Source of the DNA: an uncultured Candidatus Binatia bacterium
GTDB lineage: Bacteria; Desulfobacterota; Binatia; Bin18
Assembly: GCA_965214755.1 (NCBI GenBank)
Contig: OZ243979.1
Coordinates: 1,923,251-1,987,250, forward strand
Reading direction: 5' to 3'
Length of the DNA stretch: 64,000 nucleotides
Both the position numbers and the translations under genes were made by a program. The first letter of the stretch is position 1; the number at the start of each line of letters is the position of its first letter. The notes beneath the pieces were generated by a model, which was given only the letters and a program-made list of their open reading frames with translations, made no database searches and was not told where the DNA came from. Below are positions 16,184 to 33,951 of the stretch, in pieces.

Positions 16184-16791
16184 ATGAAACTCTCACAGCC
16201 CCGCATCACCCCACTTGCAGCTGAAGAATGGACGGACGAACAACGCGCTTCACTTGAGGTCCGCTCCCGTGCCGGACACGTCTATAACGTCGTTGGCACG
16301 CTGGCTCGGCATTGGGAGGCCTCGAAAAAATTCCAGGTCTGGGCCTTCCACATCATGGGCGAGACCTCGACTCTGGTTCCCAGAGAACACGAGTTATTGA
16401 TATTGCGTATCGGTTGGCTGTGTCAGGCCGAATACGAGTGGGGCCAGTGTGATTTTCGGTAGAGAAGCCGGGCTGATCGGTTGGCTGTGTCAGGCCGAAT
16501 ACGAGTGGGGCCAGTGTGATTTTCGGTAGAGAAGCCGGGCTGACGGATGAAGAAATCGCACGGATTAAAGAGGGCCCGGACACGGACGGCTGGGACCCGT
16601 TTGACGCCACCCTGCTGCGCGCCGCAGATGAACTGCACGCAGACGCATTTATCAGCGACGAAACCTGGACGGCTCTGAGCGAGCGCTATACGACCCAGCA
16701 ACTCATGGACGTGGTCTTCACCGTCGGCCAGTACAATATGGTGTCCATGGCGCTCAATTCCTTTGGCGTCCAACTCGACATGGCCCAGTAG
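16184..16791 (+). pseudogene. Carboxymuconolactone decarboxylase (CMD/AhpD-like) family gene split by a 67-bp tandem duplication
   Basis: ORFs 16184-16462 and 16516-16791 are the N and C halves of a CMD-family protein (...RIGWLCQAEYEWGQC / VIFGREAGLTDEEIARIKEGPD...). A perfect 67-bp duplicate lies between them. Confidence 0.7.
16409..16542 (+). repeat. Perfect 67-bp tandem duplication (2 copies)
   Basis: 16409-16475 is identical to 16476-16542. 67 mod 3 = 1, so the duplication frameshifts the CMD gene. Confidence 0.95.
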
Positions 16792-16795
16792 AGTA

Positions 16796-19700
16796 ATGAA
16801 CACCCATAGTTTTCTTGCTCTAGACCTCGAAGTCGGACGGCACGACAATCGCATCCATGCCTTTGCTGCGGTACACTCACGTAGCGGTAAATCCCTGAGG
16901 TTTCGTAGCGGCGACTTGGCTGCGGCCCTGGAAAACCTGGACGCATTCGCCAAGGGCGCGGATTACTTGCTGGGCCATAATCTGATTGCGTTCGACCTGC
17001 CTCATCTGAGCGCGGTAAAACCCGACCTTCGGCTCCTGCGCTTGCCTGTAGTGGATACTTTACGGCTCAATCCCCTAGCCTTCCCCCGTCACCCCTATCA
17101 TCATCTAGTCAAGCATTATCAGGACGGACAACTCAAACGCGGACGCGTCAACGACCCGGAACTGGACGCCCGACTCTCCCTGGATGTTTTCAGCGATCAG
17201 CAAAAAGCGCTGAAGGAGACGGACCCCGACTTGCTGACCGCCTGGCATTGGCTCACCAGCGCGGACGACGCTGGGGCCGGCTTTGACGCTTTTTTCGCAG
17301 CCCTGCGAGGGACGGCCCGACCGTCCCACATCGATGCGTATGGGACGATCCGCGCCCGGCTCGCGGACACGACCTGTCTCACCCGGAGCCAGGCGGTGCT
17401 GCAAGAAGTCTTAGCGGATACAGCCGGCAACGGCTGGGGACTGGCCTATGCGCTAGCCTGGTTGTCGGTGGCCGGCGGGACCTCAGTCATGCCGCCCTGG
17501 GTGCGGCATCAGTTCCCCGAAGCCGGGGTGCTGGTGCGCCGGTTGCGCGATACGGCCTGCACCAGTCCCGCCTGCGAGTGGTGTCGGGACCGGCACGACG
17601 CTCGCAAGGAGCTGACACGCTGGTTCGGGTTTGCAGACTTTCGTCCGGAGCCCAGCGACAAGGACGGTCGGCCTCTGCAACAGGCCATTGTCGAGGCGAT
17701 CATGGCCGGACAACACGTACTGGGCATTTTACCGACCGGCACCGGCAAGTCACTGTGCTACCAGATTCCGGCCTTGTCCCGGTACGACAAGACTGGTGCG
17801 CTGACCGTAGTCATTTCGCCGCTGGTGGCGCTCATGGCCGACCAAGTCACCGGCTTGGAATCTCACGGCGTCGTATCCGGCGTGACCATCAACGGCATGT
17901 TGTCCATGCCCGAGCGCTCGGCAGCCCTGGACCGGGTACGCCTGGGCGATGCCAGTATCCTCATTGTCTCACCCGAGCAACTGCGCAGCCGTGCCGTGCG
18001 GCGGGTCTTGGACCAGCGCGAAATCGGCACCTGGGTGCTGGACGAGGCGCATTGTCTGTCTCGCTGGGGCCACGACTTCCGGCCCGACTACCGATACGTG
18101 GCCCGTTTTATCCGTGAGAAGACACCCGCCGGACAAATAGTCTGCCTGACGGCAACGGCCAAACCCGATGTGCGAGAAGACATCCACGCCCACTTCCGTG
18201 ACAAGCTCGGCATTGACATGACCGTCTTTGACGGTGGTGCCCGACGCACCAACCTGGAATTCGTGGTTGTGCCGACGACGGGCGGCGAGAAATTCGCTCA
18301 TATCCACCAAATCCTGAGCGCGGACCTGCCGTTGGACACCCCCGGCGGTGCTATCGTCTACTGTGCGACACGCTCCCAAACCAAGAATATCGCTCAGTAT
18401 TTATGCGCCAAGAATATCAACGCCGCCCACTTCCACGCCGACCTGTCACCGGAGACCAAGAAGAACGTGCAGCAGCGGTTCATCTGTGGCGACCTCCGGG
18501 TGATCGTTGCCACCAATGCCTTCGGCATGGGTATCGACAAACCGGACGTGCGGCTGGTCATTCACGCCGATATCCCCGGTTCGCTGGAGAACTATGTGCA
18601 GGAAGCGGGCCGGGCGGGCCGCGATCAAGAAAAGGCGCGTTGCGTGCTGCTCTATACGGAGGCCGATGTCGAGCGTCAGTTCGGTATGTCGGCTCGCTCA
18701 CGGCTGACCCGGCAAGAAATCCACGCCATCCTCAAGGCGCTGCGCAACCTGGATCGCAAGAAGCGCCTGAACGGTCAAATCGTCGCCACCGCACGGGAAA
18801 TTCTCGGTGAGGACGAGGATGCTGAGTTTGAACACGACTCCGCGACCGACGATACTCGCGTGCGGACCGCCATCTCCTGGCTGGAGGAGGCCGAATTATT
18901 GACCCGTGAGGAGGACCGCGTACAGGTCTTCCCATCCTCTCTTCGAGTCGGCTCAATGGAGGAGGCCCGAGCCAAACTGGCTAAGACTACCGTTACAACC
19001 GACTATCGCAAGCGGTTATTAGCCATTACCGCGAGTGTGATTGATGCCGATCCTGACGAGGGTATCTCTACCGACGAGTTGATGACAGTCTCCGGGCTGC
19101 CCGCAGAACAGGTACGCCACGCCCTGCACGACCTGGAGCGACTGGGGATCGCCAACAACGACACCGCGCTGACCGCCTTTGTCCATTCCGGGGTCCAGCA
19201 TGCGTCAACAAAACGCTTTGACGAAGCCGCGGATCTGGAGCGCGCCCTCATCGCCGCCCTGCAAGAAGCAGACCCGGACATGGGGAAGGACGACACCTCA
19301 ACGCTGCACGTGCGCCTCACCACCCAACGGCTCAAAGACGCCGGCCATACCTCCGCCCTGCCGGAACGTGTGGTACGTATTCTACACAGTCTTGCCCTGG
19401 ACGGACGCGGCGAAGAGGGTGGCAAGGGGAGCCTTGGCTTACGCGAAGTGGGCCGGGAGACCGTGCAGATCACACTTCAGCGGGAGTGGGCCGCGCTGAG
19501 AGAGACTGCGGAGCGGCGCCGGGCCGCGGCGCGGGTCTTGTTGGACCACCTGCTCGACAGCCTGCCGTCAGGAAGTCGGGGCACGGACCTGTTAGTCGAA
19601 ACAACGCTTGGCAAGCTGCTAAACGCGATCCGGTCCGACCCGGAACTGAAGACCACAGTCAGAAATCCCGAACGGCTACTGGACCGTGCCCTGCTGTGGC

Positions 19701-21886
19701 TGCACGAACAGGAAATCATCCGTCTCAATAAGGGATTGGTCATATTCCGTCCCGCCATGTCCATCCGTCTGAGTCAGGAACTGCGTCGCTTCACCAACGC
19801 CGACTTCGCACCGCTCAAGCTCCATTACCAGGATCAGGTGCTCCAGATTCACGTCATGGCTGAGTATGTCCAGCGCGGCTTGCAGGCCATGACCGACGCG
19901 CTGACTCTCGTCATGGACTATTTCAGTCTGGAGCAGCAGGACTTTTTGCGCCGCTGGCTACCCGACCGCGACAAGGAGATTACACGCCAGACCACGCCAG
20001 AGTCGTGGAGAGCTGTTGTGGAAGACCTGAGAAATCCCGTCCAACAGCGCATTGTCGCCGACGACCGAGAGCAGACCAACGTCCTGGTGCTGGCCGGTCC
20101 TGGCTCCGGCAAGACACGAGTCCTGGTGCATCGGATTGCCTATTTATTACGCGTGCGGCGCGAAAACCCGCGCGGCATTCTGGCCCTGGCCTATAATCGC
20201 CATGCTGCTGTCGAGATTCGTCGCCGCCTGGCCGACCTGCTCGGTGACGATGCCCGTGGCATAACCGTACTCACCTGTCACGGCTTTGCTATGCGGTTGG
20301 TGGGCGCCAGCTTTAGCAGACGCGTGGAACGATTGGCCAACGATGTGTTCCAAGTGATACTCCGGCAGGCGGTGGACCTGCTGCGGGGCGCGGGGCTGCC
20401 AGCGGACGACGCCGATGAGCAGCGGGCGCGACTGCTGGCCGGGTTCCGCTGGATACTCGTGGACGAATATCAGGACATCGGGCCAGAGCAGTATGAATTG
20501 ATTTCGGCTCTGGCCGGCCGAACCCTGGCTGATGAGGACGATAAACTCAGCCTGTTTGCTGTGGGCGACGATGACCAGAACATCTACGCTTTCGACGGGG
20601 CGTCGGTCGAGTTTATCAAGCGTTTCGAGGCGGACTATCGGGCCAGACCGGCTTTCCTGACGGACAATTACCGCTCTACGGCTCACATCATTGCTGCGGC
20701 CAATACGGTTATTGAACCGGCCACACGGCGCATGAAATCCGACCATCCCATCCATGTTGATCGGGCACGCGCCAAGCAGCCGCCCGGCGGGGTCTGGGAG
20801 GAGTTGGACCCGATGTCGCGCGGACGGGTACAGATTCTACCCATACGGCGTGACCCGATCTTACAGGCCCAGGCAGCAATAGCGGAGTTGCAGCGTCTGT
20901 CCGCTCTGGCACCGGGCTGGGACTGGTCCGGCTGCGCTGTCATTGCCCGCAAGTGGCAATACCTTGAGCCGGTGCGGGCCTGCTGCGAAGTCCACGGCAT
21001 TCCGGTCCAGATGGGTAACGAGGAAATCCCGGGGTTTTGGCGACTACGAGAGACCCAGGCACTACTTGTCTGGCTACGCCAGCGTGAAACCGACCTCGTG
21101 GACAGCACCAGCCTCAGCGCTTGGCTGAACGCCCAGGTCTCCAATCCCTGGACCGAGCTGCTGCGGGAAGCCGTGGACGAATACGCTCTGGAAACCGGCG
21201 GGACGGAAACGCCGCTGGACCACTTCATCGAGTGGCTGGCTGAGTGGGGGCGCGATGTGCGCCGTCGGCAGCGCGGCCTGTTACTGTTGACCGCGCACCG
21301 CGCCAAAGGACTGGAGTTCGACCACGTGGTCGTCTTGGACGGCGGCTGGAACAGTACCAGCTGGGGCGAAGATGCAGACGCACCGCGCCGCCTCTACTAC
21401 GTGGCCATGACCCGTGCCCGGCAGACCTTGGCGCTGACATGCTTTGACGAGTTCCATCCGTTCCAAGCGACCTTGCGCGCTCATCCCTCGGTCCTGCACC
21501 GCTCTCCGGTCGCATTGCCACCTCACACCCCAGAGATGACCACCCGTTATCAGCGGCTCAGCCTGCGCGATGTTGATCTGAGCTTTGCAGGGCGCTATCG
21601 GGCCAGCAACCCGGTGCATCGTACCATCGCTGCTCTTTCGCCCGGCGATCCACTCCGAGTCCGTACCACCCAACAACCGTGGCAACTGCTGGACCGCGCC
21701 GGCAACGTGGTGGGTCGCCTCGCCAAAGGCTATAAGCCACCGGCCGCTGCGCGGCTCCGGTCGGCAACAGTCCTGGCTGTTGTGACGCGGAGGCGGGCAG
21801 ACTCGAAGCCGCACTACCAGGACGCTCTCAAATGCGAGGAGTGGGAGGTGGGGGTGCCGGAACTGGTGTTTCAACGCGCGGGCTGA
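16796..21886 (+). CDS. Large tri-domain protein: N-terminal DnaQ-like DEDD 3'-5' exonuclease, then RecQ-family SF2 helicase, then C-terminal UvrD/Rep SF1 helicase
   Basis: Exonuclease motif FLALDLEV...GHNLIAFD. RecQ motifs PTGTGKSLCYQIPAL, VLDEAHCLSRWGHDFRPDY, ATNAFGMGIDKPDVRLVIH. UvrD motifs AGPGSGKT, ILVDEYQD, VGDDDQNIYAFDGA, TAHRAKGLEFDHVVV, YVAMTRARQTL. 1696 aa from MNTHSF. Confidence 0.85.
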   Translation: MNTHSFLALDLEVGRHDNRIHAFAAVHSRSGKSLRFRSGDLAAALENLDAFAKGADYLLGHNLIAFDLPHLSAVKPDLRLLRLPVVDTLRLNPLAFPRHPYHHLVKHYQDGQLKRGRVNDPELDARLSLDVFSDQQKALKETDPDLLTAWHWLTSADDAGAGFDAFFAALRGTARPSHIDAYGTIRARLADTTCLTRSQAVLQEVLADTAGNGWGLAYALAWLSVAGGTSVMPPWVRHQFPEAGVLVRRLRDTACTSPACEWCRDRHDARKELTRWFGFADFRPEPSDKDGRPLQQAIVEAIMAGQHVLGILPTGTGKSLCYQIPALSRYDKTGALTVVISPLVALMADQVTGLESHGVVSGVTINGMLSMPERSAALDRVRLGDASILIVSPEQLRSRAVRRVLDQREIGTWVLDEAHCLSRWGHDFRPDYRYVARFIREKTPAGQIVCLTATAKPDVREDIHAHFRDKLGIDMTVFDGGARRTNLEFVVVPTTGGEKFAHIHQILSADLPLDTPGGAIVYCATRSQTKNIAQYLCAKNINAAHFHADLSPETKKNVQQRFICGDLRVIVATNAFGMGIDKPDVRLVIHADIPGSLENYVQEAGRAGRDQEKARCVLLYTEADVERQFGMSARSRLTRQEIHAILKALRNLDRKKRLNGQIVATAREILGEDEDAEFEHDSATDDTRVRTAISWLEEAELLTREEDRVQVFPSSLRVGSMEEARAKLAKTTVTTDYRKRLLAITASVIDADPDEGISTDELMTVSGLPAEQVRHALHDLERLGIANNDTALTAFVHSGVQHASTKRFDEAADLERALIAALQEADPDMGKDDTSTLHVRLTTQRLKDAGHTSALPERVVRILHSLALDGRGEEGGKGSLGLREVGRETVQITLQREWAALRETAERRRAAARVLLDHLLDSLPSGSRGTDLLVETTLGKLLNAIRSDPELKTTVRNPERLLDRALLWLHEQEIIRLNKGLVIFRPAMSIRLSQELRRFTNADFAPLKLHYQDQVLQIHVMAEYVQRGLQAMTDALTLVMDYFSLEQQDFLRRWLPDRDKEITRQTTPESWRAVVEDLRNPVQQRIVADDREQTNVLVLAGPGSGKTRVLVHRIAYLLRVRRENPRGILALAYNRHAAVEIRRRLADLLGDDARGITVLTCHGFAMRLVGASFSRRVERLANDVFQVILRQAVDLLRGAGLPADDADEQRARLLAGFRWILVDEYQDIGPEQYELISALAGRTLADEDDKLSLFAVGDDDQNIYAFDGASVEFIKRFEADYRARPAFLTDNYRSTAHIIAAANTVIEPATRRMKSDHPIHVDRARAKQPPGGVWEELDPMSRGRVQILPIRRDPILQAQAAIAELQRLSALAPGWDWSGCAVIARKWQYLEPVRACCEVHGIPVQMGNEEIPGFWRLRETQALLVWLRQRETDLVDSTSLSAWLNAQVSNPWTELLREAVDEYALETGGTETPLDHFIEWLAEWGRDVRRRQRGLLLLTAHRAKGLEFDHVVVLDGGWNSTSWGEDADAPRRLYYVAMTRARQTLALTCFDEFHPFQATLRAHPSVLHRSPVALPPHTPEMTTRYQRLSLRDVDLSFAGRYRASNPVHRTIAALSPGDPLRVRTTQQPWQLLDRAGNVVGRLAKGYKPPAAARLRSATVLAVVTRRRADSKPHYQDALKCEEWEVGVPELVFQRAG

Positions 21887-22172
21887 TCCGCCCCATTCGT
21901 AAAGACTGTGGGATTTCATGAACTCTGCTATCTGGTATGGCAAGGCATATGATGCAGAATCGTGGATCCGCACGGACCTTACGCCAAAAATCCTGCTCGT
22001 TGATAGTGACGAATGTTGGCTGGGGCTGTTGGCGTAATAAGTCAGGAATGGCGTCGTCTTTGATGACACTATTCGGACGCAAATCCAGGATGTATTGAAC
22101 CGCTCCTTGATACCATTTTGCGATATCTCGCTCAATGTCTCGTCCCAACAACTGTTCGTCCAGAACAATCAT
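21828..22172 (-). CDS. DUF5615 (PIN-like) putative toxin
   Basis: MIVLDEQL... 114 aa. Start overlaps the stop of the DUF433 gene (ATGA). 3' end overlaps the convergent helicase gene by about 59 bp. Confidence 0.6.
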   Translation of the reverse strand: MIVLDEQLLGRDIERDIAKWYQGAVQYILDLRPNSVIKDDAIPDLLRQQPQPTFVTINEQDFWRKVRADPRFCIICLAIPDSRVHEIPQSLRMGRISPRVETPVPAPPPPTPRI

Positions 22173-22453
22173 CAGGCAGATTCTAAGTGTGGGAGGGTCT
22201 TGATGAATTGATCCGTTACCAAGCGGACCGCCTCCATTAGTGCAGCCTGGGAGACACGACCGCGATAACCTTCGACAATCTCATCGATATTTTCTCCAGC
22301 CGCTAGTCGCTCAAGCGTACCGGTGATCTCAACGCGGGTGTATTTGAAAGTGGGACGACCTCCGCATACGCCCACCGCTCGTACGACATAGTCCCCAAGC
22401 GGGTAATAGTGGTAGGGTTCTCCAGCAACTATTTCGGTCGAGAGAGCTAACAT
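22172..22453 (-). CDS. DUF433 domain putative antitoxin
   Basis: 93 aa. A conserved DUF433-like core. Canonical partner of DUF5615. Confidence 0.6.
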   Translation of the reverse strand: MLALSTEIVAGEPYHYYPLGDYVVRAVGVCGGRPTFKYTRVEITGTLERLAAGENIDEIVEGYRGRVSQAALMEAVRLVTDQFIKTLPHLESA

Positions 22454-26917: not shown

Positions 26918-28003
26918 ATGTCCTCCCAGCCACACAGCGATCTCGATCAGGTCCGTACCTACTTCCAGAACTTCGGCCTGAAACAGGCGCCGGAAAACGG
27001 CTCGCCCTTATACCACGCCTTATCGTTAGGCGTGCTGAACGACCCCGGTATGCTGCGCTTGGCCGCAAGCTGTCCGCCCTCGCAACCGTCGGCAAACCTG
27101 CTGTTCGGTGCGGTGCATTATCTCCTCTTGGGTGGAGTCCGGCATCCCGTGCGCGACTTCTACCCGGATGTGGTTGCCTCAGAAAAAGCACCGCGCCTAC
27201 CCGCTCAGGAGACCTACCCGCTGTTTCAAGACTTTGTGTGGCATCACACCGAGACAATCAGACAGCTCATCACTACCCGCTTGGTCCAAACCAATGTCGT
27301 CCGCCGCACGACCTGCCTCCTGCCGGTCTTTGCTCAGCTTGCACAAGAGGCTGGGAGTCAGGCTCTCTCGATTATCGAGGTCGGAAGCAGCGCCGGCCTG
27401 AACCTACATTGGGACCGTTATCACCACCGCTATGAGTATCCGTCCGGGGCAAACAGAACGTGGGGCGACAAGAACGCGGCCGTCCGGCTTTCAACCCAGG
27501 TCAGAGGGACCGTCCCTCTCCCGCCTCTGCCCAAAGAGTTCCGTATCGCCTGGCGCGCGGGGATCGACATCAACCCGATCGATGTGACTGACGCGGATGC
27601 CATGCGCTGGCTGCGCGCGCTCATCTTTCCCGAACATCTGGAGCGTCACCAGGAAACTGAGGCCGCCGCCCGCATCACCCGCGATAACCCGGTTCCTATT
27701 GTAACAGGAGACGCGCTTACCCATTTGCCCAACCTGTTAGCCCAAGCCCCGCAGGACTCACACCTGTGTCTCTACGCCTCCATGGTCCTCTACCAACTCT
27801 CGCCTGAAGCCCGCAGAAAGTTATGGAGGATGTTAGCCGCATTCTCGGCAACCCGGCCAGTCTCCGCCGTCATTCTGGATGGCGTCCCGGAAGGCTGGGC
27901 ACAGCTCCTCATCAGAGACTTCAAAAACGGCGCCTGTGCAAAACGCCATGTGGCCGCCACCCATGCCCACGGGCGTTGGTTGGAGTGGCGTGAAACGGTA
28001 TGA
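26918..28003 (+). CDS. DUF2332 family protein
   Basis: PLYHALSLGV...ANLLFGAVHYLLLGG resembles the DUF2332 signature. Confidence 0.6.
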   Translation: MSSQPHSDLDQVRTYFQNFGLKQAPENGSPLYHALSLGVLNDPGMLRLAASCPPSQPSANLLFGAVHYLLLGGVRHPVRDFYPDVVASEKAPRLPAQETYPLFQDFVWHHTETIRQLITTRLVQTNVVRRTTCLLPVFAQLAQEAGSQALSIIEVGSSAGLNLHWDRYHHRYEYPSGANRTWGDKNAAVRLSTQVRGTVPLPPLPKEFRIAWRAGIDINPIDVTDADAMRWLRALIFPEHLERHQETEAAARITRDNPVPIVTGDALTHLPNLLAQAPQDSHLCLYASMVLYQLSPEARRKLWRMLAAFSATRPVSAVILDGVPEGWAQLLIRDFKNGACAKRHVAATHAHGRWLEWRETV

Positions 28004-28223
28004 CAAGCGGGAAAGGACGCCAGAGGACACCTAAAAATGCATCTCCTTCCTCTCTAAAATACGTTATATCCACAATAGTCTTGCCGATTTACATGAAATC
28101 CAGCATCGTGACTGTATATTTTCACGTATATTAAGGTCGGTGTGACCAGTCAAAACTTTTCTCCGCCGCCTCTGGGATGGGGAGATCATCGCGTAAGCGG
28201 GTTGACACTCTACGCCTGCGCCA

Positions 28224-30906
28224 TCACCACGTCCTGAATCCTTGCCGGCTCGAACGCCACCTCAAAAAATCCCACTGTCCAAAACCGCCCTGCTCATTCA
28301 CCGCCCGAATCCAGATGTCCATAGCCGCGCGTTTCGCTCGGTTCTGTTCGCTGTCTTGGCCTTTCACTTCTAATACTAGCATCTCACCGTTGCGGAAACG
28401 AATCACATAATCCGGCACAAAGTTTCGGGATGAACCCCGATCCAGATGGTTGTTCTTGACCCAGGCTGAGATAGGCGGCTCAATTTCACATATATCCGCA
28501 ACCGCCTTCTCCCACACACTGTCGTACACGGCGTGACTGATGTGCGATTTCACCGTGGCTTGGCACGGCTTTGTGGTGTACTAGGTCCGCATAGAGGCGG
28601 TTGAGCCAATCGCCTGATCTGGATCAAAGCAGACCTGCAATTGCTCGGCATTCTGCTTGCGCACGAAGCAGCTGACATGGCCGACCACTGTGTCCATATT
28701 CAGCGCAATCAGGATGCGACGACGCACCGGGTCTTGATGCCACAGACCGGGGATGTCGAGTTTGTCGCTGGCCAAAAACGCTTCTGCCAGCCGAATCAAT
28801 TGCACCGCTAGATAGGATATATCGCCCGAGAAGGCATCGGCGTTCAGAAGATACAACTTCCGGGCCGCTCGGAAGATGAGATTTTGGAGCCGAAATTCTT
28901 CAACCGCCTGCTCCAGGTCGATAGTACTCAGCTTGGACAAGTCAGTATGCCCGGTCAGGGCCGGAGCGACTTCCGCAGAGATGGGCGTCTGTGCAGGGTC
29001 CAAGGTCAAGGGTTCTACGGTATCCCAATCTATGACCAGTGTAGGACGGAGAAGCGTTTCTATGCGGGCCACATTCGGCCAGCGGATTTCATACTGGTTG
29101 CGTCCGGGGACGACTTCAACTTGCACGCTGGGTTTTGGCGGGGGCGGTACTGCTCCGCCTTCTCCAATATCCTGAAAGATGGACAAAGGAACGCTAAAGA
29201 CATTGACGTATTCCGGCAAGAATAATCCGTCCTCATCGCGCTCATACGACACCCGCCACAGCCCCCGACCAATCACCTGCTCGCACAGCAATTGACTCGT
29301 AAAGGCTCGTAGTCCCATGATGTGGGTCACATTCGCGGCATCCCAGCCTTCCGACAGCATGGCGACAGAGATGATATTTTGGAGCTTCTGTTCAGGTTTT
29401 CCCCGTTTGCCAACAGTATCGACGCTGGCGCGCAACTGTTCTTCCTGCTTGGCGCGTAACAACTCTTCGAGTTTATCATCAGGCAACCCTGAAACATTCA
29501 GGATCGCCTCCAGCCGTTCAGCATAGTCCTTATTTTTTGTGATCGATTCACCACGTTCGGCTTTTTCCAGCACCCGCGAATCAACCCGCAGCGTCTTTTC
29601 GAGATGTTGCAGACAGTCAGCAGGACCGTCGGTATCTCGTGCCCCTCGGCCTTCCAGTCTTCGGCTATTTCGCGCCAATCGTAGGCCAAAAGCGCATAGG
29701 CTTTCTGCACCAAATCGGGCAAGGGTTCGTGCGGCTCTGCCTTCCGGTTGAGGTCCTCCTTCACTTCCGCTTCGTTATAGAGGTGATAGAGCTTGCTCCT
29801 ATAGGTTTGGGCATTGGCGAGGGCATCGTCACGGACAACCACACGCGGAGTCTTGACTAAGCCGGCTTCAATAGCGTCATTCAGGCCAAAATCAGAAACG
29901 CTCCAATCGAACAGCCCCTTTTCGGTGGACTTCTTTCCGGTTGGGGCAAAGGGTGTCGCCGAGAGGTCAAAACAGCGACGAATCCGCCGGGTCTTGTGGA
30001 TACGGTCGAGCCCTTCTATCCAACGGGTGGCTCTTCCAGATCAATACCAAATTCCTGTGCCTCTCTTTTACTGACTTTGACCTCGGCACGCTGGCGGTAG
30101 GCATGGTGCGCTTCGGCATTGATAACCACGAGATTCTTGTAGCCGGCCAGCTTGCCTAATACGCGCCGCGTAAAAGCCTCATCGCTTCCCGCTCCCTTTT
30201 TGACAGCAGAGCGATCAGGCTCCTTGAGCGGCATGAGGCTATGCCAGTTCTCCACCAGGAGGACGGCCTGATTGACCTTCTAACGCAAAGCCTCATTCGG
30301 ACACAGACGAAACTCGTCGTAGACATTCTTTTCATGGCCCGGATAGAGCACCGGCAAGCGCTCCTTCACGGTCAGGCCCGGTGCAATAACAAAAATGGCT
30401 TGGGAAAATTCTTTGCGTTTGGGATAGGTCAGGGCATTCAACACCTGCCAGGTAATGATAAGGCCCATGAGCGTGGTCTTCCCGGCACCGGTTGCCATCT
30501 TATTGCAAATGCGTTCCCAGGGACCACTATCGCCGGGCAGGTGGATACCTTGCTTATATTCCGGCGGCCCTTCTACCCACCAGATCAATGTCTCGATAGC
30601 TTCGAGTTGGCAGAAGTAGAACGGCAACTAGCGTGCCTCGCGGTCGTGCCAATGTTCGAGCAAACGACGAGACACACTGGTCACGCCGGGATAGCCGGCC
30701 TCCCGCCACGCATCCACACGCGGACGAATACGGTTGACTCGCTCAAGCTCTTTAACCCGGCGGGTGTTGTTGCGCGTGTCAATAATCTCATACCCAGCCT
30801 CACGCCGGCCGGGTCTGACATCTAATACCTGTCCCCGTTCGTCCTGAGCCCAATGCTGCTGTGGATTGTCGTAGGGGGAGTTAATGATGAGGGAGGTTTG
30901 GGTCAT
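28224..30906 (-). pseudogene. res: Type III restriction endonuclease Res subunit, inactivated (4 in-frame TAG codons plus 2 or more frameshifts)
   Basis: Fragments carry the Res N-terminus, helicase motif I (ATGAGKT), motif VI (MLSEGWDAANVTHIMGLRAFTSQLLCEQVIGRGLWRV) and a C-terminal PD..(E)VK nuclease. In-frame TAG at 30628-30630, 30280-30282, 30016-30018 and 28581-28583. Frame changes near 30016 and 29678-29842. Confidence 0.8.
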
Positions 30907-31472
30907 TACACTGTCTCGGGTGGTAACATATCGCTAATAGAGAGAAATGGCGTTTCCGCGAAGGTCGTAATATGTATCGATCTGTATATCTCTTGCTTTC
31001 CTTCCGGGGAAACCAGAACTCCTTGTCTATCAAGCATTCTGCTCAATTGCTCTGCTATAAGGACATATCTGGGCGTCAGATTGGATCTCCAGTCGCTAAA
31101 CTCGCGTTCAGCTTCAACTTCACACACGGAAAGCAGATATTTCAAAATTGGCAGGGAGCGCCGTAGCTGCTCCTTGGCCTCTTCCTCTTCGCGCAGCTTG
31201 TTCTTCAATTCGACAAAGATAACGTAATCGTTGCCGTCCGATTGACCAGTCAGCACATAGTCGCAGCTTTTTTTCACATTAGGGTGGTCTCGCAACCCTC
31301 GCATATGCATGCGTGGGCTTATACGTATGGCGAGAAAAGGTGCGGAAACACCGGTAAGCTCAACCTCCATTTTCGATTGATGATCCCGAAGAGTGACGAC
31401 GCCATTAGGTGCCTTGGGACGCTGAAGAAATTGCGATCCTAGAACGGTCTCCAATTGGGAAATCAACTCCAC
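30906..31472 (-). CDS. Hypothetical protein with a putative PD-(D/E)xK nuclease motif (D...DYVIFVELK); GTG start; stop overlaps the res start (TAATG)
   Basis: 188 aa, intact. Translationally coupled to res. Downstream of the ATPase gene. Confidence 0.5.
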   Translation of the reverse strand: MELISQLETVLGSQFLQRPKAPNGVVTLRDHQSKMEVELTGVSAPFLAIRISPRMHMRGLRDHPNVKKSCDYVLTGQSDGNDYVIFVELKNKLREEEEAKEQLRRSLPILKYLLSVCEVEAEREFSDWRSNLTPRYVLIAEQLSRMLDRQGVLVSPEGKQEIYRSIHITTFAETPFLSISDMLPPETV

Positions 31473-31553
31473 CTCACTCTTCCTCTTCGACCGTCATACC
31501 ACTTACTTTTCTCTCATCACTAATTGTTAAATATACTACTTGTGACAAAAGAA

Positions 31554-32975
31554 TCAATCTCCCTCGTGCTTTAGCCGGAATCCGAGTTCATTGGAAATCT
31601 TGTTGATATCGTGAATCGTTGTGTCAAAGACCGGCATGTCAATGCCGTATTTTTCAATCGTACACTGCGTCAGGCTGTTGTTTTCCGCCGCGTAGGCTCG
31701 GACCGAATCGGGCTTCAGGTAGTCGTGCTCTGAGTACTTGAGTTTTTTCAGCACCTTGGGCTTGTCCTTGAAATCCTTGCTCAGCATGAGCAGATTGTTG
31801 ATTTCCTTAACGATATAGTCGCTGTGGGTCGTAATCAGGACTTTCAGACCAGCGTGGACGGCCCGCGCCAACAGACGCGCCAGGGCAATCTGATTGGCTG
31901 TGTCAAGATGACTTTCCGGTTCGTCAATGATGGGAAGCTGATTTTTTTTGGCGATGTGGCGCAGAAAGAAATACAGGTCCGATAATCCACGGACCGAAGA
32001 AGAGGCGATATGGAGAGGAATATCGAAGCTATCCGCTTTCCGCGCATTTGATTTGAATCGGATGTCGTCACCGGAACTTTTGTAATAACCTCCCATCATG
32101 TCTCTGATATTCTTAAACAATTCAGAGGCGTATATTTCGCTTCGTTGCCTTTGGAGATCGGGAAGACCTCTGGTGTAGTCGATGTTGTCTCTGATGGGAA
32201 GCGCGTACCGACCGGCCAGCTTGTCGATTATCAGGAATGGCTGGAAACGTTCTCTTTCCCTGTCCTGTCCGATTTCTTGAAGCGCCTCCACTAAACGATT
32301 CTTTGTAAAGTCGAGTTCCTTGTAGAAGAGCGATATACCAAAACGCTCGGCGGAGAGAATGAACGGTTCGGGAGATTCAGGAAAAAGAAACGAAAGATAA
32401 AGGTCTGAGAGAACACTTGAAAGAGCATCAGCGGGAGGAGATTTTCTGCTGCCCCCCTTGCTTCTGGACAGACACATTTCATCATCTGTATAGGCAAGTG
32501 TAAATTTGTCTCCGGTGGAGAGATTAAGCGTTTTGCTCGGCGCGTGCTCAGGAAACTTATCTCCAATTACGACTTCGATAGACGCGCCTTCGAAGTCTTT
32601 GTCTGAAGAGCTAAACACATTCGCCAGGGCTTCTTCTGAGAAGTCTTGAGCCACTTCTCCCATAATGAAGTGGCGATCTAAATTAAGCGTCTCTCGATCC
32701 ACGGACCACTTCACCTGACCCTGTTCTACGACTGTTCTGGCAAGCGTTTTCATGGCTGGGGGACGTGATTTAGTGCCGGAAAAGGGAGGGAGCTGGACCA
32801 ACTCATCAAGAAACTCTGGGAGCGGGGGCCAGTTTGGCCACATTTTGAGAAACCCATACAACGTATACGCCACATATGTCTTGCCGGTATTATTCCGACC
32901 GGCAATGATCGTCAGATCGCCTAGTTCCAGTTCGGCTTCGTTTATGGGACCGAGGTTCTTAAATACGAATTTCAT
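31554..32975 (-). CDS. AAA-family (AAA_15/AAA_21, ABC-like) ATPase
   Basis: Walker A IIAGRNNTGKTY, Walker B/D-loop IIDEPESHLD...TTHSDYIV. About 473 aa from MKFVFKNLGPI. Intact. Confidence 0.8.
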   Translation of the reverse strand: MKFVFKNLGPINEAELELGDLTIIAGRNNTGKTYVAYTLYGFLKMWPNWPPLPEFLDELVQLPPFSGTKSRPPAMKTLARTVVEQGQVKWSVDRETLNLDRHFIMGEVAQDFSEEALANVFSSSDKDFEGASIEVVIGDKFPEHAPSKTLNLSTGDKFTLAYTDDEMCLSRSKGGSRKSPPADALSSVLSDLYLSFLFPESPEPFILSAERFGISLFYKELDFTKNRLVEALQEIGQDRERERFQPFLIIDKLAGRYALPIRDNIDYTRGLPDLQRQRSEIYASELFKNIRDMMGGYYKSSGDDIRFKSNARKADSFDIPLHIASSSVRGLSDLYFFLRHIAKKNQLPIIDEPESHLDTANQIALARLLARAVHAGLKVLITTHSDYIVKEINNLLMLSKDFKDKPKVLKKLKYSEHDYLKPDSVRAYAAENNSLTQCTIEKYGIDMPVFDTTIHDINKISNELGFRLKHEGD

Positions 32976-33053
32976 GGCTCTGTCTCCGCAGTGCAGGTTG
33001 CGTGTTTCCCTCACCCTAACCCTCTTCCAGAGGGAGAGGGAATAGGAGGCCGG

Positions 33054-33951
33054 TCAGTCGGTGATATCCATCACCTTGAGGCTTTCAATGCCGCGGTCAT
33101 CAACGATTTTTACGGCGATACGTCGATTGTCGCCCGGCTCGAAGGGCAGGGATTTTGTGCCCTGAAACCGGGCCAGCAACAAACGGTCGCGCAAATAGCT
33201 GAGATAGGAGTGAATCCCCAACTCCCACGTGTCCCGAAACGCCTTAATCATCTCCGGCTCTTGGGTCAGGTCATTATCATTCCGATCTTTCACATCCCGC
33301 TTATTGGTGAACGGCTGAAAGTTCGAGCCGTATTTGATGCCATACGGCGGGTCGATGTAGATCATCTGCACCTGCCCGGCCATGCTCTCCTTGTGTAACA
33401 GTGAGTTCATGACCAGCAGCGAATCGCCGGCAATCAGCCGGCTGGCCCAGTCGCGCTCGTGCTTGTAGAAGTCGATGGCTTCGCGCAACGGCAGGTTCTC
33501 GAACGGAGCGGCAAACAGGTCAGGCTGGAACTCTGACTTGCCTCTTGCCTTTTCCTCCCTTCATACGTTTCTGTACCGCAGCCAGAAGCGTGGCCGGGTC
33601 AATCCGCTCATGAACGTGCAGCGCCACCGTATCGACCTCAAAGCTGGTCCGTTCGGCCTTGCCGGTCCAGTTGAGATATGGCGCGTGCAGACGTTTGAGC
33701 TCTTCCAGGGCTTGGCGCATGACCGCCTCATCTCCCGAGGCGAGAGCGTCGTCAATCAGCCTTTCAATGTCGGCGCGGGCGGTGTCAAAGTTGAGAGTCG
33801 GGTCGATATGCGGGTCGCAGGCCCAGCTTGTCTGTCCCTCCACCTCGTCGCTGCTGGTATCGACCATGCCGACATGCGGATTGTTCTTGCGCTTGTCGCT
33901 GTGGCGGTAGCTGAGGGTCTGCTTGGCTGTCTTTTGCTTAGAGGTTGCCAT
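33054..33951 (-). pseudogene. mod: Type III R-M Mod (N6-adenine methyltransferase) remnant: N-terminal region and DPPY motif only; frameshifted and lacking the TRD and motif I
   Basis: ORF 33520-33951 carries a Mod N-terminus (LNWTGKAE...LHVHERIDP). ORF 33054-33488 carries [25 protein letters not shown]...IYIDPPYG and then ends after about 80 aa. The two are in different frames. Confidence 0.7.

Follow-up and report, generated by a model that had tools for sequence, protein, structure and literature searches.

A widespread bacterial protein family with a predicted DEDD exonuclease fold and RecQ- and UvrD-family motors in one chain, viewed from a Candidatus Binatia genome

Helicase and exonuclease modules are combined in several described systems that resemble parts of a gene carried by an uncultured Candidatus Binatia bacterium (GenBank assembly GCA_965214755.1, contig OZ243979.1). 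The gene lies in a 64,000-nucleotide stretch, positions 1,923,251 to 1,987,250 of the contig, which is referred to here as the window. Its product very probably unites a DEDD exonuclease fold, a four-Cys metal site, a RecQ motor, a winged-helix-like linker, a UvrD motor, and a small C-terminal domain. The fusion represents a real, widespread and uncharacterised family and is not a one-off oddity.

The eukaryotic WRN protein has a comparable layout, in that a DEDD 3'-5' exonuclease at the N-terminus precedes a RecQ-family 3'-5' helicase within one chain, and the RecQ core of the window protein matches WRN helicase structures (E ~1e-49). However, WRN contains RQC and HRDC domains, both undetectable in the fusion, and no superfamily 1 (SF1) motor, whereas the fusion adds a UvrD motor, a four-Cys site, and a new C-terminal domain. 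The exonuclease subtype also differs from that of WRN, which suggests that the two fusions arose independently. The closest exonuclease domain is that of the Firmicutes DinG proteins of S. aureus and B. subtilis (PDB 9ii8/8zef). DinG differs in that its helicase is of the XPD/DinG type (5'-3' family) and not RecQ, with no second motor. It also keeps the histidine of an H-x4-D motif, where the fusion family has an asparagine.

RecBCD, AddAB, and AdnAB likewise combine two helicase-type modules with a nuclease and have an SF1A (UvrD-like) motor in common with the fusion, which gives weak NCBIfam matches to AddA, RecB, and RecB-like models. These systems are hetero-oligomers with PD-(D/E)XK nucleases, while the fusion is a single chain with a DEDD exonuclease. 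The motors of RecBCD are of opposite polarity, whereas both motors of the fusion come from 3'-5' families. To our knowledge, no Chi-type regulation is known for the fusion family. In MrfAB of B. subtilis, a superfamily 2 (SF2) helicase and a DnaQ-like 3'-5' exonuclease serve a specialised repair of mitomycin damage. MrfAB is a two-gene system in which MrfA is a DEXH/DUF1998 helicase, not RecQ, with no SF1 motor. Literature searching also returned a preprint on such a system (10.1101/426304).

A nuclease-plus-helicase logic is also shared with Gabija GajB, Nhi, Hna, DpdF, and PsyrT. PADLOC models of DpdF and PsyrT match the RecQ part (up to 381 bits) and GajB models match the UvrD part at residues 1073–1327 only (up to 185 bits). 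All PADLOC matches are partial and limited to a single domain, and no PADLOC model covers the whole protein. The NCBIfam DpdF model NF041063 scores 203.5 bits against a cut-off of 550. No gene for GajA, the Dpd cluster, or PsyrA adjoins the helicase in the window or is conserved among the neighbours of its homologues. Membership of Gabija was rejected because GajB matches one domain and no GajA-like gene is adjacent or conserved. One candidate partner, an AAA_15/21 ATPase (31554–33014), was ruled out as it is 9.7 kb away, is best matched by PD-T4-4_A, and is separated from the helicase by metabolic genes. Membership of Dpd or PsyrTA was also rejected, given the sub-threshold DpdF score and neighbours that encode a carboxymuconolactone-decarboxylase-like (CMD) protein, amidohydrolases, DUF433, and luciferases.

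The gene itself is real and intact. The + strand open reading frame (ORF) 16763..21886 is free of interruption in the ORF list of the window, and the ATG at 16796 yields a 1696-residue product with the N-terminus MNTHSFLALDLEV and a chain mass of ~190 kDa. It is 100% identical to a publicly deposited protein (P0001), and more than 100 full-length homologues of 1690–1900 residues share 68–90% identity with it over 99–100% of its length. An initial annotation made from the DNA sequence had proposed that one ORF joins exonuclease, RecQ, and UvrD modules, and all three have since been recovered using hidden Markov models (HMMs), a diverse profile, and fold comparison. It had also raised the prospect of a chimera with a coverage break near 20000. 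GC content is even across the helicase ORF (0.60–0.64) with no break near that position, and the same fusion is present at full length in at least 596 species-level genomes of many phyla and on finished plasmids of cultured strains. On these grounds an assembly chimera was rejected.

The exonuclease domain is the least visible of the three modules. Residues 1–265 have no Pfam match even at E ≤ 10, and PDB searches of the N-terminus with a single sequence and a shallow profile gave no match. A profile of 46 diverse N-termini of the fusion family (alignment A4) matched the 3'-5' exonuclease of S. aureus DinG best in the PDB (E = 4e-4), followed by weaker matches to TREX-like, T7 polymerase, Pol II, and Cas2-DEDDh exonucleases. 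An AlphaFold2 model of the N-terminus from this alignment reached a predicted local distance difference test (pLDDT) score of 93.6 and a predicted template modelling (pTM) score of 0.89, superseding a model from only 14 close homologues (pLDDT 48.8). Fold comparison of the model scored 13.8 with S. aureus DinG (212 residues aligned), 13.4 with both REXO2 and PolC, 12.9 with Exonuclease I, 12.8 with both a TREX1 homologue and Pol III epsilon, 12.6 with Cap18, 12.4 with Cas2-DEDDh, and 11.9 with RNase T. Foldseek was concordant. The domain thus models as the RNase H-like exonuclease fold of the DEDD (DnaQ-like) family. As it is invisible to Pfam, current annotation hides one third of the protein's chemistry.

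Using an HMM alignment to DinG to assign the Exo II and Exo III positions, the four acidic residues of the DEDD family (D10, E12, D67, and D124) were found in 46 of 46 diverse sequences. The fifth catalytic residue, a His five residues before the last Asp in DEDDh enzymes or a Tyr four before it in DEDDy enzymes, is absent. N119 instead occupies the position of the catalytic His of DinG, with Asn in 40 of the 46 sequences, Ser in 3, and Gln, Pro, and Gly in 1 each. D87, Y101, H102, and K106 are also invariant in this set. Y101 and H102 sit in the loop ahead of the Exo III helix and might act as stand-ins for the missing His. From the alignment and the model together, the N-terminal domain is assigned as a DnaQ/DinG-like DEDD exonuclease fold with its four metal-binding acidic residues intact and a predicted exonuclease activity.

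Between the exonuclease and the RecQ motor, the initial annotation had noted a Cys-rich motif, CTSPACEWCRDRHD, at residues 255–268 (nt 17558–17599). The motif is present and its cysteines are invariant; C194, C255, C260, and C263 (nt 17375–17377 and 17558–17584) occur in 46 of 46 sequences. However, the His of the proposed CxxxxCxxCxxxH pattern is not invariant, with H267 in only 25 of 46. The conserved quartet implies a predicted four-Cys metal site. This may functionally replace the Zn-binding subdomain that the RecQ module lacks, or it may be an iron-sulfur (Fe-S) site.

The first motor is a member of the RecQ family (SF2), matching TIGR00614 recQ_fam over residues 292–638 at 312.8 bits, well clear of the model's cut-off (219.8). 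Pfam identifies DEAD (121 bits) and Helicase_C (82 bits) over residues 292–640, and the closest solved structures are the catalytic cores 4tmu and 1oyw (E ~1e-66). Its motifs include PTGTGKS (313–319), DEAH (416–419), and QEAGRAGRD (602–610). It is not RecQ proper, scoring 351 bits against 640 for TIGR01389 and 268 against 1015 for NF008279, and the equivalog match ends at model position 348 of 591, where the Zn-binding subdomain would start. Beyond residue 640, Pfam, PDB, and profile searches detected neither RQC nor HRDC, and there are no conserved cysteines. Hence the "complete RecQ helicase core" first described holds for the two RecA lobes but not for the Zn/winged-helix (RQC) and HRDC regions of RecQ.

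The linker that follows is specific to the family and about as well conserved as the enzymatic modules. Pfam, NCBIfam, and single-sequence PDB searches gave it no significant match. It has only weak matches to DUF4423, RPA_C, and DprA_WH, to MarR/DtxR-type regulators, and to DUF4194, MksE, and HTH_Crp_2, and is probably made up of tandem winged-helix-like modules. The second motor is of the UvrD/Rep/PcrA (SF1A) type based on its motifs and on Pfam scores above gathering thresholds over residues 1081–1550, with UvrD-helicase at 138 bits (gathering 23) and UvrD_C at 50 (gathering 25.6), alongside AAA_19 and UvrD_C_2. The motifs are AGPGSGKT (1100–1107), DEYQD (1223–1227), GDDDQ (1257–1261), and VAMTRAR (1536–1542), and the closest solved structures are UvrD (3lfu, 2is1), UvrD1, PcrA, and Rep. 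This motor is not UvrD proper either, with 164 bits against 1144 for TIGR01075 and 174 against 965 for NF008743, and the NCBIfam equivalog models of UvrD, PcrA, and Rep all score below cut-off. Canonical bacterial RecQ and UvrD therefore have homologous motor cores, but the equivalog scores of the fusion lie so far below the cut-offs that its modules are paralogues and not orthologues of these proteins.

Across the 21 members of alignment A3, whose identities go down to 38%, every ATPase and helicase motif of the two motors is kept unchanged. Column conservation in the diverse set is 0.57 for the exonuclease, 0.67 for RecQ, 0.50 for the linker, 0.58 for UvrD, and 0.41 for the C-terminal domain. 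The latter has no Pfam or PDB match with single sequences or a 20-sequence profile. There is no hypervariable segment, and purifying selection is even over the full length. The coordinates of the modules are given in Table 1.

Table 1. Location of the fusion gene and its modules in the window (nucleotide positions of the window; aa, amino acids; AF2, AlphaFold2; wHTH, winged helix-turn-helix)
Feature	Position	Strand	Details	Basis
Whole gene	16796..21886	+	1696 codons plus stop, TGA-type, 21884–21886	ORF list, translation
DEDD (DnaQ-like) 3'-5' exonuclease domain (predicted)	16796..17215	+	aa 1–140; Exo I D10/E12, Exo II H61..D67, Exo III N119..D124	
Helical region	17216..17650	+	aa 141–285; four invariant Cys: C194, C255-x4-C260-x2-C263	helices in AF2 model
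RecQ-family SF2 core, two RecA lobes	17651..18715	+	aa 286–640	TIGR00614, Pfam, PDB
Family-specific linker	18716..20020	+	aa 641–1075, 435 residues	weak wHTH-type matches
UvrD/Rep/PcrA-type SF1A core	20021..21460	+	aa 1076–1555	Pfam, NCBIfam, PDB, motifs
C-terminal domain, fold unassigned	21461..21883	+	aa 1556–1696, 141 residues, least conserved part	

RecQ and UvrD/Rep/PcrA helicases are 3'-5' translocases, and DEDD exonucleases shorten DNA strands from their 3' ends. As both motors come from 3'-5' families, a RecBCD-like bipolar pair running down one DNA end is not expected, and the bipolar unwinding suggested in the initial annotation is unlikely from what is established for these families. 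The best reading of the sequence, by analogy with WRN, is that the fusion acts as a stand-alone, WRN-like enzyme for processing 3' ends and branched DNA. Its predicted loading sites are stretches of single-stranded DNA, found at gaps and 3' tails and in branched molecules, D-loops and stalled or regressed forks among them. From there the motors would each move 3'-5', either in tandem on one strand or on the two arms of a branched substrate, while the exonuclease would trim the 3' end exposed by unwinding, as in WRN. The resulting role would be one of accessory genome maintenance, in which aberrant replication or recombination intermediates are resolved or degraded, and the gene may have been gained horizontally by many lineages and then retained. 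With two motors of different superfamilies and a proofreading-type exonuclease in one conserved chain, the family offers a natural experiment in helicase coupling. The architecture is striking, yet it does not depart from known helicase-nuclease principles.

The fusion was first described as uncommon, which its distribution does not bear out. A search with residues 1–265 against 1.84 billion cluster representatives (50% identity) returned 1162 matches, of which 219 reach E ≤ 1e-30. In the best 150 of these 1162 clusters, members of full length have about 1700–1900 residues. The family is present in at least 596 of 185,579 species genomes (one genome per species), spread over many phyla. The closest relatives among the matches listed are metagenome-assembled genomes of Candidatus Binatia, with 82–89% identity in the N-terminus. 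Between phyla, the first 290 residues are 63–70% identical, and named homologues compared over their full length reach ~70%. Members with 63–74% identity are found in Dehalococcoidia, Caldilineaceae, Nitrospirales, Latescibacterota, Poribacteria, Acidobacteriota, and the Alpha-, Beta-, and Gammaproteobacteria. The fusion is also found in 25 plasmid records, many of them megaplasmids or chromids, including those of Rhizobium, Paracoccus, Cereibacter, and Croceicoccus. Among cultured genera, the plasmid records with the gene amount to no more than a handful, for example 6 for Rhizobium and 3 for Cereibacter. No phage-borne homologue was found in 50,697 phage records, and IMG/VR gave 6 matches among 2.9 million viral contigs.

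Over the full length, identity to the window protein is 65.6% in Thiothrix fructosivorans ATCC 49748 (residues 7–1692), 55% in Cereibacter, 44% in Allochromatium vinosum DSM 180, and ~30% in Nostoc and Bacteroides. RefSeq labels the cultured homologues "RecQ family ATP-dependent DNA helicase". This large uncharacterised family reaches from lineages of the sponge-symbiont type (Poribacteria, Dehalococcoidia) to rhizobia, Cereibacter, Bacteroides, and Nostoc. A paper on Desulfonema mentions a second, ATPase-only "RecQ", which may or may not belong to it.

A neighbour-joining tree of 65 full-length members mostly tracks taxonomy at the level of class and order. Exceptions include one Binatia copy placed among Bryobacterales and one Poribacteria copy within Dehalococcoidia. 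The Binatia genome OZ220487.1 appears to carry two copies, one of the syntenic type (P0025, 86% identical) and a divergent one (L074, 67%) in another context. The grouping of the divergent copy with those of Bryobacterales suggests a separate horizontal acquisition.

In Nostoc punctiforme PCC 73102, the homologue on plasmid pNPUN02 (9971–14989) is annotated as three consecutive genes labelled RecQ family helicase, UvrD-helicase domain protein, and '3'-5' exonuclease'. These genes share one frame, and a single tblastn alignment covers residues 6–1644 of the window protein. The gene is therefore broken by two in-frame stops, which may reflect a pseudogene, a sequencing issue, or read-through. 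It adjoins a large N-6 methylase gene and two big helicase genes. A distant branch (~27–33% identity) occurs in human-gut Bacteroidales, namely on 'plasmid 6' of Bacteroides finegoldii and in Phocaeicola massiliensis. The Bacteroides copy encodes 1624 residues near nfo and two ssb genes, and could be a tractable model.

The gene has no fixed partner across bacteria. When all ORFs at 84 loci (42 non-redundant) were clustered, no conserved partner gene or operon emerged beyond synteny within lineages. A nearest-neighbour scan considered the four closest ORFs at each of the 42 non-redundant loci, covering the first 150 of 160 ORFs (~40 loci), and no Pfam family recurred in more than 2 of the 150. 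These neighbours are mostly housekeeping genes, such as those for PEPCK, GatB, aconitase, the ATP synthase delta subunit, and MnmA. At seven Nitrospirales loci (L017, L020, L031, L037, L048, L068, and L105), the helicase lies between the atp operon and mnmA-parB-(parA)-gidB-gidA(-trmE-yidC) in an origin-proximal block. In two unrelated lineages (L010 and L091) it likewise adjoins atp or gidAB-parAB genes. The placement may mark an insertion hot spot or may be functional.

In Binatia, the gene order is Anthrone_oxy, Amidohydro_3, Amidohydro_2, CMD, helicase, luciferases, TauD, PTE, and DUF2332. The CMD-helicase-luciferase synteny holds at seven related Binatia genome loci (L005–L008, L012, and the L001/L002 contigs), with identities of 84–90% for the helicase and 85–99% for the flanking genes. 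The comparison uses relatives, as an exact look-up of the window protein among contigs returned no match. The helicase is thus vertically inherited at a fixed position among metabolic genes in this lineage. The variable neighbourhood described in the initial annotation is not general, as variation near the gene is confined to a small slot immediately 3' of it. This slot is empty in L006–L008 and is filled by a DUF433 pair in the window. In L001 and L005 it accommodates three to seven small genes, one of which encodes a Pfam 'Lockin' protein. That annotation had also allowed for a widespread housekeeping gene of the lineage, which is half correct; the gene is stable and vertically inherited in Binatia, but patchy and plasmid-borne across bacteria.

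An accessory role in genome maintenance is tentatively preferred, though held with rather less than even confidence, and is slightly favoured over defence against mobile elements. It is favoured by stable synteny, which Nitrospirales and Binatia both display, by the tree that tracks taxonomy, the even purifying selection, the housekeeping character of most neighbours, and the fact that no PADLOC model covers the protein, and is further supported by the near-absence of the family from phages. If the fusion is a repair enzyme, it would provide a bacterial counterpart of WRN that is accessible to genetics in cultured hosts.

Several observations weigh against this WRN-like maintenance role. The general-base His of canonical DEDDh enzymes is replaced by Asn, so exonuclease activity is not assured. 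The distribution is patchy given the small fraction of species genomes involved, and the gene is often plasmid-borne. No LexA box of the gamma or alpha type was found within 400 nt upstream of the Thiothrix, Allochromatium, Cereibacter, Bacteroides, and Nostoc homologues in what is a crude test, and full-text literature searching found no paper on an exonuclease-RecQ-UvrD fusion. The remaining points concern the genomic surroundings. Among the neighbour ORFs scanned, PADLOC matched type IIG restriction-modification (RM) systems at 2 loci and Hma, AbiE, and AbiL once each, along with several PDC candidates, also once each. Defence genes lie within ~10 kb in about 8–9 of 19 annotated contexts, as a raw count. 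One such locus has type I RM and HNH genes and another has Cas6, WYL, and a SWIM-helicase. Insertion sequence (IS) elements accompany BrxL at one locus, and a ParE and a Schlafen/AlbA_2 protein are present at another. One context combines type IIG RM, an AAA_15/21 ATPase with DUF4276, M78 with DUF4411, HicAB, and Fic, while the homologue on the conjugative Nostoc plasmid is near a large methylase and helicases. A relaxase, HNH, DUF4238, and serine recombinases mark one locus as a mobile context, and the remaining annotated loci have ordinary surroundings.

These surroundings keep defence close behind, together with the patchiness, the plasmid carriage, and an apparently raised, though minority, association with defence and toxin-antitoxin genes. 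It is a reasonable possibility, though short of an even chance, that the fusion acts as a single-protein effector against mobile elements, comparable to Nhi, Hna, Gabija, and RecBCD. Such an effector would recognise phage or plasmid DNA by free 3' ends or by intermediates of rolling-circle or recombination-dependent replication, after which the two motors would unwind the foreign DNA and the exonuclease would degrade it. This agrees with the patchy cross-phylum distribution and megaplasmid copies, and with locations beside or within defence or mobile-element clusters in several independent lineages. Toxin-antitoxin modules often adjoin the gene, including in the window, RM, Abi, Hma, and PDC matches occur among the four nearest ORFs of ~40 loci, and a PD-T4-4-like system lies ~9 kb downstream in the window. 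At least one Binatia genome has an apparent second, divergent copy of foreign ancestry. If the fusion is a defence enzyme, it would be a single-gene system overlooked by island-based screens.

However, most chromosomal copies have ordinary housekeeping neighbours with no recurrent Pfam family. In Binatia and Nitrospirales the gene has long kept its place and descended vertically, and the tree is broadly congruent with taxonomy, all of which is at odds with a defence effector. The protein is unusually highly and evenly conserved and has no hypervariable sensor region. It also lacks a dedicated PADLOC model and has no homologues in the phage records. As sponge symbionts or inhabitants of sludge and soil, the host taxa have abundant defence genes in any case, which raises the background rate. 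The defence idea in the initial annotation is a candidate reading only: a mere minority of loci have defence-gene neighbours, and there is neither a conserved partner nor a whole-protein PADLOC model. A more specific proposal casts the family as a single-protein enzyme of immunity or surveillance that has so far escaped recognition. In it, a WRN-like exonuclease-RecQ unit that evolved independently in bacteria, coupled to a UvrD motor, would destroy foreign or aberrant DNA with accessible 3' ends. The four Cys would then make up a metal site, possibly Fe-S, with a regulatory function, and recognition would fall to the variable C-terminal domain. This elaboration is possible, though less likely than not.

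It is improbable that the fusion serves large secondary replicons or integrated elements, through plasmid or chromid replication, conjugative processing, or stability, with the chromosomal copies being leftovers of integration. The 25 plasmid records with their many megaplasmids or chromids fit this idea, as do ParA/MipZ, topoisomerase, RNase HI, relaxase, serine recombinases, and IS elements near some loci and the three lineages with the gene in the chromosomal gidAB-parAB/atp origin-proximal region. Against it, 13 of the 25 plasmids are typed as non-mobilizable, no replication or transfer gene is consistently adjacent, and most genome copies are on multi-megabase chromosomes in metabolic contexts. 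Finally, that the ORF is an assembly or annotation artefact fusing separate recQ and uvrD genes can be dismissed as next to impossible, since the colinear 1690–1900-residue architecture recurs in hundreds of independent assemblies and on closed plasmids of cultured strains (Thiothrix ATCC 49748, Cereibacter, and Allochromatium DSM 180), the 435-residue linker between the motors is conserved and specific to the family, and composition is even over the ORF.

The genes flanking the helicase in the window show two local peculiarities. Directly after it, a two-gene cassette on the – strand (21828–22453) comprises a 113-residue ORF followed by a 92-residue DUF433 protein, and the 3' end of the 113-residue ORF overlaps that of the helicase by 59 nt in a convergent arrangement. 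The cassette had been called a DUF433/DUF5615 pair; the DUF433 gene and a partner are indeed present, but DUF5615 is unconfirmed, with no Pfam match for the partner at E ≤ 0.001. Upstream, the CMD gene was thought to be split by a tandem duplication, and a perfect 67-bp repeat (2.0 copies, 100% match) is indeed found at 16409–16543. It leaves the gene as two ORFs of 92 and 91 residues where related Binatia have an intact 183-residue ORF. The duplication could be an assembly artefact. As the helicase ATG is only 4 nt past the stop of the second CMD fragment, a polar effect on helicase expression is possible.

Conserved metabolic genes separate the helicase from a probable PD-T4-4 anti-phage system on the – strand (30906–33014), ~9 kb downstream. 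Its AAA_15/AAA_21 ATPase (31554–33014; 9.7 kb from the helicase) is best matched by PADLOC PD-T4-4_A (366 bits, E 7e-110), and the 187-residue protein after it weakly matches PD-T4-4_B / PDC-M47B. These genes occupy a second variable slot at ~28000–33500, past the conserved DUF2332 gene, where the ORFs 28224–28550, 28581–29678, and 30241–30825 have no Pfam match. In related Binatia, the cargo of this slot consists of a TIR (CAP12-PCTIR_TIR) gene with DUF433 and HTH_37 in L001, and of AAA_15/21 fragments in L002.

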